DNA of 42,848 nt, from UHGV virus genome UHGV-0210678. One strand, written 5' to 3'. The position numbers were made by a program, and so were the translations under genes. Shown here piece after piece: positions 2,959-41,339 of the stretch. The notes beneath the pieces were generated by a model that saw only the letters and a list, made by a program, of their open reading frames with translations, searched no databases and was not told the DNA's origin. Positions within the stretch are counted from its first letter, which is position 1, and each line of letters begins with the position of its first letter. The DNA comes from a virus.

Positions 2959-3047
2959 GACCAGATAGGAAGTCATTAAAAGCTAGGAGTTGGGGCTACT
3001 TATAATTCGGGGAATTATTGTTATTGGGGAATAACATATTTTGGAGG
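2959..3047 (+). repeat. ~90-bp cassette leader, copy 2
   Basis: Close direct repeat of 1885-1974, ending at the RBS of the 3055 gene. Confidence 0.85.
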
Positions 3048-3054
3048 GATTACT

Positions 3055-3774
3055 TTGGAAAGCTTTTGCGCAATTATGTTTTTTTTCTCATTGATCGCAA
3101 TAGTATATTTTGCGATTCGTTGGATTATCAATCACTTTATAAAAAATGGTGTTAACAAGCCATACAAAAAATATACTTTTATTTCGCTTATAGCAGCCGT
3201 TCTATTTCTAACAGTAGGAACCATAGCCTCACCAACTCATCGATCAAGTGCAGATCAGACAAGCACTTCTAGCAGAATATCTTCTAAACACAAAAAGAAA
3301 AATACTTCCAATGAGTCAAAAAGAAAGGCTAGTATCAGTAAAGCTAACTCTATTAAAGAGAAGGATTCATCTGAAAGCGCCCTATCAAGCAGCAAAGAAG
3401 AATCTGCAAGTATTGCTGCCTCCAAGTCTGAATCCAAAGAGAATTCAGAGAGTATGGCTAGTTCTGAATCCGAAGCAAGCAAAAAGCAGTCTGAGGCAGA
3501 AAGCTCTTCAATAGCTAAAGCCAGTTCAGAATCATCAGTTGCTAGCTCGTCATCAGCTAAAAAAGCGAGCGAAACAAGTACTACAGACAATGCTTCTTAT
3601 ACACAAAACGGTGGTTGGACTACTGCTGCTTCTGGTATGGTTTTTGTATCAGACTCCAATAAGTACTACACCAGCGTTAAAAATCCAGGTAATTACCAAT
3701 ATATGACCCAGAGTGCTGCTGATAATTCTGGTGCCAAGCCAGCACCACGGGGCAATCAATACGCAAGACCATAA
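3055..3774 (+). CDS. Membrane-anchored surface protein with Ser/Ala/Lys-rich stalk and small C-terminal domain
   Basis: TTG start after GGAGG; two hydrophobic N-terminal segments; long low-complexity linker. Confidence 0.75.
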   Translation: MESFCAIMFFFSLIAIVYFAIRWIINHFIKNGVNKPYKKYTFISLIAAVLFLTVGTIASPTHRSSADQTSTSSRISSKHKKKNTSNESKRKASISKANSIKEKDSSESALSSSKEESASIAASKSESKENSESMASSESEASKKQSEAESSSIAKASSESSVASSSSAKKASETSTTDNASYTQNGGWTTAASGMVFVSDSNKYYTSVKNPGNYQYMTQSAADNSGAKPAPRGNQYARP

Positions 3775-3781
3775 CAGGTCC

Positions 3782-3800
3782 AAGCCCTCGTCGGGGCTTT
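3782..3800 (+). terminator. Hairpin just upstream of tRNA-like element 1
   Basis: AAGCCC-TCGTCG-GGGCTT-T with only a short U-tract. Confidence 0.5.
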
Positions 3801-3803
3801 CAC

Positions 3804-3889
3804 GCGAGCGTAGTTCAACGGTAGAACGGTGCTCCTTTGAATTGCTAACTAGATACTAACAGATGTAGGTTCGACTCCTGCCGCTCGCA
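3804..3889 (+). ncRNA. tRNA-like element 1 (37-nt insert in place of the anticodon/variable arm)
   Basis: Acceptor GCGAGCG/CGCTCGC-A, D arm GTTC-AACGGTA-GAAC, T arm GTAGG-TTCGACT-CCTGC; insert 3828-3864. Confidence 0.85.
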
Positions 3890-3924
3890 TTGTACGTTAA
3901 TAGCAAATAATTATGGAGGCAGCT

Positions 3925-4113
3925 ATGAATATTGATATCACAAAACTATTAGATTGGGGATTGATAGTACTATCTCTTTACTTAGTTGTGGATACACTTC
4001 TGCAAACAAATCATAACAACCCCTACAACATGTTTATAATAACCCTCAAATTAATAGTTGCCATCATCGTGGGATTGTTTGGTATGTACACAACTTTTTA
4101 CAACATCTATTGA
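3925..4113 (+). CDS. 62-aa two-TM membrane protein between tRNA-like elements 1 and 2
   Basis: GGAGG at 3915-3919, ATG at 3925, two hydrophobic helices. Confidence 0.7.
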   Translation: MNIDITKLLDWGLIVLSLYLVVDTLLQTNHNNPYNMFIITLKLIVAIIVGLFGMYTTFYNIY

Positions 4114-4128
4114 AACTTCTGTTAACAC

Positions 4129-4220
4129 GCGAGTGTAGTTCAACGGTAGAACAATTATTTGCACACTTCTCATAGGTCTCACATCCTATATTGATGCAGG
4201 TTCGACTCCTGCCGCTCGCA
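4129..4220 (+). ncRNA. tRNA-like element 2 (43-nt insert)
   Basis: Acceptor GCGAGTG/CGCTCGC-A, D arm identical to element 1, T arm GCAGG-TTCGACT-CCTGC; insert 4153-4195 unrelated to insert 1. Confidence 0.85.
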
Positions 4221-4267
4221 TTGTAACAAATAACCCATACTACCGCTTACTTTAGCACGTACATCAC

Positions 4268-4354
4268 GTGGGCGTAATTCAATGGTAGAATAACGATTTC
4301 AGCCCTTCTCTCTCGTTTGAAATTGTTATGTAGGTTCAATCCCTGCCACCCACT
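4268..4354 (+). ncRNA. tRNA-like element 3 (38-nt insert forming a 10-bp stem with a 16-nt pyrimidine-rich loop)
   Basis: Acceptor GTGGGCG/CACCCAC-T, D arm ATTC/GAAT, T arm GTAGG-TTCAATC-CCTGC; insert 4292-4329. Confidence 0.8.
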
Positions 4355-4377
4355 TTTAAAAGAAAGAAGGTAAGATT

Positions 4378-4554
4378 ATGGATAAAGATATGTCGAAATA
4401 TGAACTCATAGATAACATTACTAATGACTTAACCTCTTTTATTAATCTGTATGCTTTCGTTTATCTTACAAAAGATAGCTACTCAAGGAAAGAATGTGGC
4501 CGCATAATCCAAGGAATGGAAAGAGATATGGTTGATCGTCTTAAGCAAAAATAA
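4378..4554 (+). CDS. 58-aa hypothetical protein (MDKDMSKYEL...RLKQK), absent from the ORF track
   Basis: RBS AGAAAGAAGG at 4361-4370, ATG 4378, TAA 4552-4554; fills the gap between element 3 and tRNA-Gly. Confidence 0.65.
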   Translation: MDKDMSKYELIDNITNDLTSFINLYAFVYLTKDSYSRKECGRIIQGMERDMVDRLKQK

Positions 4555-4611: not shown

Positions 4612-4682
4612 GCGAGTGTAGTTTAGTGGTAAAACGACAGCCTTCCAAGCTGTAGTCGCGGGTCCGATTCCCGTCACTCGCT
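4612..4682 (+). tRNA. tRNA-Gly(TCC), T-loop variant TCCGA, no encoded CCA
   Basis: Full cloverleaf: GCGAGTG/CACTCGC-T, anticodon stem ACAGC/GCTGT with loop CT-TCC-AA. Confidence 0.9.
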
Positions 4683-4742: not shown

Positions 4743-5606
4743 ATGAGTGAACCAGAAGAAGCCACACATAATGCTAAAGTGATTTCGTTTATTAATATGA
4801 AAGGTGGAGTTGGAAAAACAACCCTATGTGTTGGGTTAGGCGAATACTTGGCTAAGTTTAAAAACAAACGAATATTATTTGTAGATATGGATCCTCAATT
4901 CAATACAACTCAATCTATTATGGACTTATTTGACTTAACAGACAAATACATGAACGATTTCAGAACGAGCAGAAGCATTCGTCAGATATTTAAAGATACA
5001 CAAACAATTTCAGAAATTCCTACGCTTCCTACTTTAGCCGATCTTGCTATTGATCTACATTCTAATGCTCAAGAACCTAATATGAGCATTATATGTGGCT
5101 CTATAGACTTAATAAAAGATGATGACAGCAGGAAGTCAAAATTTAAGCGTCTGCATAAATTTTTAAAAACTAAAGATGTTATTGATAATTTTGACTACGT
5201 ATTTATCGATTGCCCGCCTACAATTTCTTTTTATACCGATTCTGCACTATTTGCATCCGACTACTATATAGTACCAACAAAAATAGATCGTTATTCTACA
5301 TTAGGTGTCAGTTTACTATATAATGTTATTAAACAACTTGAGTTTGATGAAGATACAACGTTAAAAAGCCTAGGAATTATTTATACAAATGTTCCAAACG
5401 AGACAACTCAAAAGTCTAATAAAATACGTGATATTTTTGAAGAAGCTGATTTTGTAAGCGAATTAGGGTTATTTAAAAATGTTACACATCAAGTTCCTGA
5501 TTTAATGTTTGGCAAACAGGGCAATATATCATCTCACTATAAAAAGTCTAGAGATGACATGAAATTAATAGCAACAGAATTTTTAACTAAATTTGGAGAT
5601 GAATAA
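4743..5606 (+). CDS. ParA/Soj-family ATPase
   Basis: Deviant Walker A KGGVGKT, A' motif VDMDPQ, Walker B FIDCPP. Confidence 0.9.
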   Translation: MSEPEEATHNAKVISFINMKGGVGKTTLCVGLGEYLAKFKNKRILFVDMDPQFNTTQSIMDLFDLTDKYMNDFRTSRSIRQIFKDTQTISEIPTLPTLADLAIDLHSNAQEPNMSIICGSIDLIKDDDSRKSKFKRLHKFLKTKDVIDNFDYVFIDCPPTISFYTDSALFASDYYIVPTKIDRYSTLGVSLLYNVIKQLEFDEDTTLKSLGIIYTNVPNETTQKSNKIRDIFEEADFVSELGLFKNVTHQVPDLMFGKQGNISSHYKKSRDDMKLIATEFLTKFGDE

Positions 5607-5609
5607 TCT

Positions 5610-5972
5610 ATGGAATTTAATTTAATGCCATTAAATGAATTTAATAAACTGGCAAAAAAAGATCAACCGACATATTTTTATGGGGCTATTTCACAAACAA
5701 TCTTCTCTTTTAATGGTAATAAGGAAATTCCATTATTTTTAAAAACCACATTTAACATTGAATTTAAAGATTATGTTTTTCGTGCAAAACCATTAATTGT
5801 TTCTAGAACAATTAAGATTTTTTTTAATGATTCAAGCATCAATTTTAAGGAACAATATAAAAAATTGCTGAACTATTATGCAAATCAGAAAGATGGTTCC
5901 ACCACCAATAAAACTCCTAATAAAAAAAGCAATGCTAACGATTATTTAGAGAAGTGGCTTCGAGGAATATGA
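5610..5972 (+). CDS. Hypothetical ParA partner protein (not recognisably ParB)
   Basis: Starts 3 nt after the parA-like stop; AT-rich; 120 aa. Confidence 0.75.
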   Translation: MEFNLMPLNEFNKLAKKDQPTYFYGAISQTIFSFNGNKEIPLFLKTTFNIEFKDYVFRAKPLIVSRTIKIFFNDSSINFKEQYKKLLNYYANQKDGSTTNKTPNKKSNANDYLEKWLRGI

Positions 5973-6634
5973 GAGACTCTAATTTCACTGCACTCATTAA
6001 CGATAGAAATAACGCATTTAAAATAATATTTAGTGTTCGGTCAAACTTAAGTGATGATTCACAGAAAATTTTAAAAGAGTCAATTTTTAGAATAGTTTCA
6101 TATAAATATTTCTGGTATTCCAAAGAGTCTTACAAATTTTGCCGACTTTTTATTTCTGACTTAGTTATTGCACTGACACTTTTATGTAAAAAAGATAAGC
6201 GTATTTTTTACGTGTATTTAAGATCAAGCATAGAAGCTTTTTATAATTGTGCAAACATGATCGATGAACAAAACATAGAAAATGATTCAAGTAGTTATTT
6301 TAAGGCAAAGAAAAAATTCAAAAATCTAATTTCTACCCAAAAAGGTTTTCAATTTCTTGAATCTTTTGAAACGCTAAACGAGAGCTATAAACAAATAAGT
6401 AATGTAATACATCGAAATGTGTATACACAAGATAAATTAACAGTGTACATGAATGAATATTTTAAAACCGATGATTTTGAAGATTCAATAGAAATTGCTC
6501 AAGCAATAGAATTACTAGATACTTTAACTGAAATATATTCTTCCTTTTTTCTAACATCTCCATCATTCAAGAATATTCTAGAAGACAGTTTCTACAGAAG
6601 AAAAACTTTGCTTCGTGAAATACAAAAATACTGA
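5969..6634 (+). CDS. Helical protein with HEPN-like signature; candidate effector
   Basis: ATGA overlap with the previous stop; LRSSIE and YKQISNVIH motifs. Confidence 0.6.
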   Translation: MRDSNFTALINDRNNAFKIIFSVRSNLSDDSQKILKESIFRIVSYKYFWYSKESYKFCRLFISDLVIALTLLCKKDKRIFYVYLRSSIEAFYNCANMIDEQNIENDSSSYFKAKKKFKNLISTQKGFQFLESFETLNESYKQISNVIHRNVYTQDKLTVYMNEYFKTDDFEDSIEIAQAIELLDTLTEIYSSFFLTSPSFKNILEDSFYRRKTLLREIQKY

Positions 6635-6811: not shown

Positions 6812-7933
6812 ATGTCAGTAACCAAACTTAATAATGGTAAATGGCAAGCCCGTGTCTCTTATAAAGATGATGACGGTAACTATAAGTCGGTTACTCATTT
6901 AGAAAAGCGCAAAACTGACGCTGTTGAGTGGGAAACTAAAACTAAGAATGCTCTGCTGGAAGGTGCTGACTTATCACGTAGTACCGAGAGTCTAAAGCAT
7001 TACTTTCTTGATTGGATCAGAATTTACAAAACTGACGGTGTATCGCGTCATACTCACGAGCTATATATGGGCAACTGGCGCCACGTCTCTGCCTATTTTA
7101 AGGATAAACCTATGAGCGCAATTAAACGTCCAGATTACCAGAAGTTCCTGAATGAATTTGGCCGCAGTCATGGAATTGCCACATCTCACAAGCTTCATCA
7201 ACAAGTACACACTGCAATCAAGGACGCCGTAGCTGATGGCATTCTAAAACGAGACTTTGCTTACAAGGCACACGTCACTGGACGCCCTCCTAAGCCCGTA
7301 GAGGAAAAGTATTTGACGTTGTCCGATTATCAGAAGCTACGTAAATACCTCATTAAAACAGCTGACTATGACCACATGACTATGCTGATGATGCTGTTTC
7401 AACTAGAAACTGGAACCAGGTTCGAGGAGGCTGCTGGTCTAACGTGGGATAATTTGGATTTGAATAATGGAATAGTTCACATTAAACAGCAGTGGGACGC
7501 CCGTAGACAGACTTTTCGTCCAACTAAGGGAAATGGACAGGCCGATGGAGATATAACCATAGGACCCGCCTACTGTCGTTTTATGAGGAGCTATCGTAAT
7601 GCGCAGAAAGATTATTTAGAATTACACGAAATGAAGAATCCTAAGAACCTCGTATTTTGGTCCAAACTAGGAAAAATAGTGGGCAATGGGAATGCAAACG
7701 AAGAGCTAGGACGTATTTGTAACCGTCTAAAGATCAACAAAGTTACAACACACGCCATGAGGCACACACACGCTTCGATTCTTATCCTAAATCATGAGTC
7801 CCTTCCCTATGTTCAACATCGCCTTCGACATCAAAAACTAGAAACGACCGTTAACACCTACGTCCATCTTATTGAAGAAGAAAACGGCGTGTCAGATAAG
7901 AAGGCTACCGAGCTAATGGACGAAGGATTTTAA
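6812..7933 (+). CDS. int: Tyrosine integrase
   Basis: N-terminal arm-binding region; catalytic R (TGTRFEE), HAMRHT, and terminal H..Y (LRHQKLETTVNTY). Confidence 0.95.
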   Translation: MSVTKLNNGKWQARVSYKDDDGNYKSVTHLEKRKTDAVEWETKTKNALLEGADLSRSTESLKHYFLDWIRIYKTDGVSRHTHELYMGNWRHVSAYFKDKPMSAIKRPDYQKFLNEFGRSHGIATSHKLHQQVHTAIKDAVADGILKRDFAYKAHVTGRPPKPVEEKYLTLSDYQKLRKYLIKTADYDHMTMLMMLFQLETGTRFEEAAGLTWDNLDLNNGIVHIKQQWDARRQTFRPTKGNGQADGDITIGPAYCRFMRSYRNAQKDYLELHEMKNPKNLVFWSKLGKIVGNGNANEELGRICNRLKINKVTTHAMRHTHASILILNHESLPYVQHRLRHQKLETTVNTYVHLIEEENGVSDKKATELMDEGF

Positions 7934-34193: not shown

Positions 34194-34563
34194 TGTAGTT
34201 CCTCCTAATCGTATGTACTTAAAAAAGCCTGACGTCAGCCAGGCCTATGTATTGTTGCCTCATAAGATGGCGATCCTGTTATTCAACAATACAATTTTAT
34301 ATCATACTATATCCAACATCATTTGAGTTGCAATACACACTATTTACTTTACTAAAAAGATCCCAACTAAATGTCAGGCTCCTGTACACGGTTGTTATCG
34401 GAAAAACGATTATAGTTTTTGCAACCATGTTTGATTATATTGCCACAGCGCACATGTTTCCGCATGCAATTTGGTGGCCAGTTTAATTGCGCTAATTATG
34501 TGATTCATAATACTATCAAATAGATGTATACTTATTTCATCTTTAACGAAAGGAGAGAGAAAT

Positions 34564-35023: not shown

Positions 35024-35083
35024 TATCGCCGGTAGGACTCGAACCTACATCCAATTGTGGCTTGCCAATTAGCCCACAGCGAT
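35024..35083 (-). ncRNA. tRNA-like element lacking an anticodon arm
   Basis: ATCGCTG-TG-GGCT-AATTGGCA-AGCC-[10 nt]-GTAGG-TTCGAGT-CCTAC-CGGCGAT-A. Confidence 0.75.
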
Positions 35084-35169
35084 ACTCGCATTCAACGGCC
35101 GATGTTAAATACGAAGACTAATGCCGGCGGCAGAGAGGAGCGCATCACCCCTTATAAATCCGCCGGCAA

Positions 35170-41242: not shown

Positions 41243-41255
41243 CGTCTTCATCTCC

Positions 41256-41339
41256 TTAAATTCCAAACCAACTAGCAACCTCATGACGCTTGAACCACAA
41301 TGCCGTTAACGCGCAGCCTACTATTGCTCCTTCAATCAT
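41256..41339 (-). CDS. 27-aa hydrophobic peptide (MIEGAIVGCALTALWF...)
   Basis: AGGAGG RBS, ATG 41339, TAA 41256. Confidence 0.55.
   Translation of the reverse strand: MIEGAIVGCALTALWFKRHEVASWFGI

Follow-up and report, generated by a model that had tools for sequence, protein, structure and literature searches.

Several described RNAs come close to the elements examined here. The CI RNA of phage P4 is a close, C4-like system, and the design of engineered tRNA scaffolds involves insertion of an RNA into the anticodon stem. The C4 antisense RNA of phages P1 and P7 is processed by RNase P and pairs through two short loops, and it is an RNA of the phage immunity region, cut by RNase P from a longer transcript, with three stem-loops and short variable loops, one of them partly over an RBS (PMC5320573). 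Engineered tRNA scaffolds carry a foreign RNA in the position of the anticodon arm and rely on host processing for stability (PMC3753655), YrlA Y RNA has a tRNA-like domain and is a non-coding RNA that keeps a tRNA shape without decoding (PMC7790460), and the Pas sRNAs are base-pairing RNAs of prophages that occur in seed variants and vary in copy number (10.64898/2026.05.13.724894). Here we describe a family of phage-borne elements that shares features with each of these.

The analysed stretch of DNA, virus genome UHGV-0210678 (42,848 nt, hereafter the window), looks like a complete temperate phage genome opened at the repressor. The phage repressor (1..399, plus strand), assigned to PHROG repressor families, starts a same-strand lysogeny run that continues 3' with a metalloprotease (408-839) and closes with the integrase (6812..7933, plus strand; phrog_1), with two DUF5067 genes listed between the latter two, while the lytic genes occupy the minus strand. 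Three tRNA-like frames sit on the same strand in the interval from repressor to integrase, and this arrangement was also found in phage Sha1 and in a module deposited as a plasmid. The first frame is followed by a hydrophobic 62-aa ORF (3925..4113, plus strand), which was without Pfam or PADLOC match, its 66-aa form being without PHROG match; ORFs of this type follow seven insert clusters across related loci. After the third frame come a 58-aa ORF of unknown function (4378..4554, plus strand; phrog_15564) and an intact tRNA-Gly(TCC) (4612..4682, plus strand; Rfam tRNA 72 bits, also called by ARAGORN), which is likely kin of the frame's ancestor. We looked for a terminator-like site between 2900 and 4800 of the window and found none. 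The nearest genome, G001, belongs to the genus whose named members bear the tRNA-like frames. Other features of the run include a pair of long, similar leaders in which G-rich words are repeated (1910-1985 and 2983-3058) 5' of lipoprotein/membrane genes, and a stretch between tRNA-Gly and integrase (4743-6634) with a ParA-like ATPase, two unknown ORFs and a weak PADLOC candidate match, possibly a defence module. A 6-pair hairpin (3782-3799) lies directly 5' of the first frame, and in other phages the 3' strand of this hairpin is found again ahead of several insert clusters.

Each of the three copies consists of a constant tRNA-Gly-like frame, with an acceptor stem of 7 pairs plus D and T arms, in which the anticodon arm is replaced by a different short sequence. 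Copy 1 (3804..3889, plus strand) scored 48.3 bits against the Rfam tRNA model with acceptor, D and T arms intact, copy 2 (4129..4220, plus strand) scored 50 bits and copy 3 (4268..4354, plus strand), whose frame is divergent, scored 38.6 bits and showed two-sided changes at pairs 2-71, 4-69 and 10-25. In the alignment the 5' acceptor strand of copy 2 is identical to that of the adjoining tRNA-Gly, which makes an origin from a glycine tRNA likely; the frame has A51-U63 where this tRNA-Gly has G51-C63. CCA is encoded in none of the three copies. In place of the 22-23 bases of a tRNA, copies 1, 2 and 3 hold 37, 43 and 38 unrelated bases, and the 5-pair anticodon stem and 7-nt loop of a decoding tRNA are absent. 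Insert 1 (3828..3864, plus strand; 37 nt) belongs to the commonest cluster, F2, is unstructured (fold -0.5 kcal/mol) and carries near its 5' end the anti-Shine-Dalgarno (anti-SD) octamer pointed out in an earlier sequence-only reading of this DNA. The complement of insert 2 (4153..4195, plus strand; 43 nt, cluster F5) does read as SD, spacer, ATG and six codons, as that reading had it; insert 2 itself has a 5-pair hairpin, which is broken in variants. Insert 3 (4292..4329, plus strand; 38 nt, cluster F0) forms a strong hairpin with a CU-rich loop, measuring 13 pairs and 14 nt rather than the 10-bp stem and 16-nt loop given earlier (z -4.5; none of 200 shuffles was equally stable), and was present as a single sequence in all 25 parsed copies, from partly overlapping loci.

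Scanned with Rfam at gathering score, the whole window returned tRNA matches only, and the C4 and Y RNA models were unmatched. The frames are best read as working like the C4 RNA of P1 while lying outside the C4 family. The likeness would extend to processing from a longer transcript, transcription and processing of the frames being predicted; in contrast to C4, the frames are recognisable tRNAs with D and T loops and without Rfam C4 match, several per phage, with unrelated inserts and without a target found in their own genome. Unlike engineered scaffolds they are natural, phage-borne, arrayed and diversified, and unlike YrlA they have no Rfam Y RNA match, nor did the tested flanking proteins match the Ro60/Rsr family. 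The Pas RNAs differ in that they are terminator-ended sRNAs, with neither tRNA frame nor cassette exchange.

The frame recurs in other genomes. A pattern scan of viral contigs gave at least 136 stretches, with about 400 estimated and some of them unrelated tRNAs. From these loci, which overlap so that the counts are not independent, we parsed 204 frames, whose 51 distinct inserts fell into 16 clusters; further loci raised the clusters to 18, clusters F18-F20 having been dropped as spurious (unrelated tRNA-Gly-type matches). A scan of species representatives placed the frame in seven named Lactiplantibacillus genomes, in Lentilactobacillus and Secundilactobacillus and on a Pediococcus plasmid, most of the others among its 95 matches being archaeal intron-bearing or otherwise unrelated tRNAs. 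The inserts measure 33-50 nt and are unrelated between clusters, with distant kinship seen by eye within F2/F13/F14, F10/F12 and F0/F8/F11, and within clusters they are conserved across several species. The frame stays paired throughout, with two-sided changes at pairs 2-71, 4-69, 6-67 and 10-25 (by eye from the parsed tables) and with the D and T loops kept. Insert stems of F3, F7 and F16 likewise vary on both sides around near-constant loops (by eye from the listed variants). Related Lactiplantibacillus prophages carry arrays of 1-6 frames within the examined loci, in many orders, and the part of G001 examined holds 8 frames of three clusters. One and the same flank stands upstream of 11 different insert clusters, and this suggests cassette exchange via the constant arms. 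In one degenerate F16 frame (L006) the D loop is damaged and the insert keeps a 9-nt match to the 3' end of the host 16S rRNA.

Taken as a family, the inserts show an anti-Shine-Dalgarno character that exceeds what their composition gives. The inserts are pyrimidine-rich, the 16 cluster representatives holding 158 C vs 69 G in 642 nt. We scored the complements of these representatives against 300 dinucleotide shuffles each, with an SD matrix trained on 2,033 G001 genes. Of 300 shuffles, one reached the summed anti-SD score of the 16 clusters, and none did so with G-U pairs allowed; for the sense strand of the same inserts, taken as control, the figures were 223 and, with G-U, 79. Taken singly, insert 1 gave p 0.003 for the SD complement, insert 2 a borderline 0.056 and insert 3 did not pass at 0.35 (0.14 with G-U pairs), so the earlier claim that all three inserts are antisense to initiation regions holds only loosely. 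SD plus start codon at the usual spacing was not enriched family-wide (score reached by 72/300 and 54/300 shuffles), and the low single values for insert 2 (p 0.013) and F6 (p 0.003) are uncorrected for 16 tests. The MRSVQI start read from the complement of insert 2 is present in the window copy and fragile in the cluster, 6 of 8 variants stopping at codon 5 in strict complement. Start regions paired better than mid-gene windows for 17 of 18 clusters, F17 being the one without preference; composition accounts for much of this, shuffles doing much the same, but in 5 of 18 clusters (insert 1 included) the preference exceeded that of all 10 shuffles, against about 1.6 expected. A general antisense-to-RBS character is in this way supported family-wide, and a single-stranded region complementary to the RBS, as a trans-acting antisense RNA would have, exists at family level and singly in insert 1 only. 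The antisense reading holds in this general character and not for named targets.

The target pool comprised 2,524 host starts, predicted with a simple custom gene caller in 2.8 of the 3.62 Mb (77%) of the G001 chromosome, together with 700 groups of prophage starts drawn from 51 loci. Four isolate phages were added, pattern searches covered between 5 and 70 genomes or records, and BLAST was run against 50,697 records of phages and 72,556 of plasmids. Duplex energies were computed for the 16 representatives with 48 window starts added, a whole-strand scan was also made, and the remaining 23% of the G001 chromosome and its other contigs were covered by pattern search only. Such a search is insensitive to short seeds, and large lytic phages, satellites, most plasmids and defence islands fall outside its seed-level sensitivity. 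Over the host starts and prophage start groups of this pool, 1, 8 and 5 of 10 shuffles did as well as inserts 1, 2 and 3, respectively, at the best start site. Because no target for the three inserts beat shuffles, the specific phage or host genes proposed earlier as targets are unsupported. In five Lactiplantibacillus genomes no long non-self complement was found at up to 2-3 mismatches; with three mismatches insert 1 had 5 matches vs 17 for its reversed control, and inserts 2 and 3 matched their own copies only. No target complement for the inserts was found in the four isolate phages and the window, and the suggested BLAST against phages and plasmids returned only other copies (Sha1 and the plasmid-deposited module) or matches at E 0.7 or worse. 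Across the family, the best target exceeded all shuffles in 4 of 18 clusters, against about 1.6 expected.

One site may be kept as a lead for insert 1. The early lytic operon contains a 42-aa ORF whose start region (41252..41280, minus strand) would pair with the insert in two blocks. Among 2,572 starts, the divergent relative F14 of insert 1 ranks this site first; by eye the pairing suits most insert variants, and 18 of 51 virus records have the site. Insert 1 itself does not rank it above chance, and the choice is post hoc, the pattern having been derived from the same site, which is also the coding end of the upstream ORF. Other candidates were set aside. F3 pairs with a host start in G001, G006 and G009, the gene being presumably PEP synthase by its protein N-terminus, but one of 10 shuffles did equally well, and pairs are lost in two of the insert variants. 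All 10 shuffles were beaten by F15 on the start of a MerR-like gene, with six G-U pairs and a one-member cluster, and by F12 on a leftward moron leader, and neither is established. The same applies to F4 on the leader at 864-881 of the window (equalled by 0/25 shuffles in one test and 7/30 in another). Insert 3 on a gene junction in L463 reached -34 kcal/mol, beyond all host starts, but 5 of 10 shuffles equalled it. The BLAST match in a Latilactobacillus phage lies mid-gene (E 0.7), and a score of 69 proved to be an unmasked degenerate frame and no target. Viral contigs scanned with exact degenerate patterns of F1 and F16 gave frames and one unrelated gut-phage start, and the single match in one exact degenerate scan was the L006 contig with its degenerate frame.

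Taken together, we put a probability of about 0.5 on the reading that these are host-processed antisense RNAs, transcribed with the lysogeny genes, excised as tRNA mimics and acting in trans through short CU-rich seeds against RBS. The frames would be co-transcribed with the lysogeny genes and, having preserved their acceptor and T arms, would be excised by RNase P of the host together with a 3' nuclease. Pairs of the A51-U63 type are linked to weak EF-Tu binding, and with this pair in place of the G51-C63 of tRNA-Gly and without a usable anticodon arm the excised RNAs would probably be excluded from translation. As stable small RNAs they could then pair with the RBS regions of other mRNAs and lower their translation. 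Pairing may proceed through short or two-part seeds, as in C4, which would explain the absence of long complements. The diversity of the inserts, and not any match, suggests variable genes of co-resident or incoming mobile elements as the likeliest targets. A bolder version, which we hold tentatively and at less than even odds, is that a glycine tRNA became a reusable chassis, carrying arrays of interchangeable guides that the host tRNA machinery excises and that each silence a different gene of a rival prophage, an incoming phage or host defence; if so, the phages would have a multiplexed antisense weapon that works without protein and gains diversity by cassette swap.

Several other explanations compete with this antisense reading. 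The frames might be decoys that soak up host defence enzymes recognising tRNAs, such as anticodon nucleases and tRNA-modifying toxins, with the insert as an uncleavable stand-in or as bait for an RNA-binding protein or a sequence-specific RNase; this we consider unlikely, for it explains neither why the inserts fall into 18 discrete clusters, each conserved internally and with several per genome, nor the strand-specific anti-SD bias. Alternatively, the frames may punctuate the lysogeny transcript, cutting it into separately stabilised small mRNAs and giving homology for swaps of accessory genes, with the inserts as near-neutral filler. The position of the frames 23-60 nt 5' of many different small ORFs, against which the inserts shuffle freely in related prophage loci, would suit such a role, as would RNA-run contigs of other strains that break and rejoin at frames, although the assembled contigs, from 4 of 22 RNA runs, cover DNA-like lengths and so are uninformative on expression. 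Filler would hardly be conserved in clusters across several species, keep stems of its own with two-sided changes or show the anti-SD bias, and an ordinary tRNA would serve punctuation equally, so that we regard this explanation as doubtful at best.

The sequence-only reading had also named the adjacent small ORFs as possible targets, which would amount to antitoxin-like regulation in cis. The short complements on which it drew are present, namely 10 nt of insert 2 (4153-4162) to 3903-3912, a 9/10 match of insert 3 to 4361-4370 and 9 nt to 34553-34561, the claimed RBS of DUF3892, yet none goes beyond chance, the inserts of the wider family giving 23 exact matches of 11-12 nt scattered over the window. 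Insert 3 does stand before one and the same ORF in all 6 distinct contexts. Over 76 insert/ORF pairs, cognate inserts did no better than foreign ones (mean rank fraction 0.49), and the same ORFs come after many different inserts, which makes silencing of the neighbours very improbable. The least probable explanation is that of odd or decaying tRNAs, a tRNA-Lys for copy 1 for instance. Rfam and ARAGORN do label the copies as tRNA, but in copy 1 the putative anticodon stem of the ARAGORN tRNA-Lys is weak and its loop lacks U33, the anticodons assigned across inserts are scattered or undefined (Lys, Trp, Glu, Ile, Leu, unknown), and a frame that is still paired around long, unrelated inserts does not look like decay. 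With regard to intron-containing tRNAs, the inserts are by eye without a shared flanking anticodon stem, unlike the archaeal tRNAs in the same table. With regard to RNA anti-CRISPRs, which mimic a solitary repeat, only words of 7-9 nt, in F7 and F4, were common by eye to host CRISPR repeats and inserts.

The tRNA-frame RNA family is real and apparently undescribed, no account of it having been found in a literature search largely confined to sources other than subscription papers. An older study of L. plantarum prophages reportedly noted transcribed tRNA genes in lysogeny modules, and the frame RNAs may thus already be on record as plain tRNAs. Whatever the mechanism, frames miscalled as tRNAs for Lys, Leu, Trp, Glu and Ile distort phage tRNA counts. 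If the antisense reading is right and the inserts act as guides, the family would be the natural counterpart of engineered tRNA scaffolds and could serve readily as a chassis for knock-downs. It would also represent a new way in which phages come into conflict with one another and with their hosts, in a genus of industrial and probiotic use. Because insert and frame can be altered separately, the family is easy to test.

Some further RNA-like elements were observed in the same material. A second, unrelated tRNA frame with a CU-rich hairpin insert of 38-43 nt occurs upstream of head genes in gut phage contigs (L008, 2492-2581, and its kin L007, L029, L036, L041 and L042); a pattern search of 5 records gave no convincing target for it in its own genome. 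On the strand opposite to the frames, L389 (1560-1660) and L187 share a conserved unit of roughly 100 nt that reads leftward. This unit combines an extended -10-like box with a strong terminator hairpin, ends directly behind some frames and is possibly a separate small RNA. In the window itself, just downstream of tRNA-Asn, a tRNA-like RNA without anticodon arm (35024-35092, minus strand) has a gap of only 10 nt between D and T arms and a near copy in G001.
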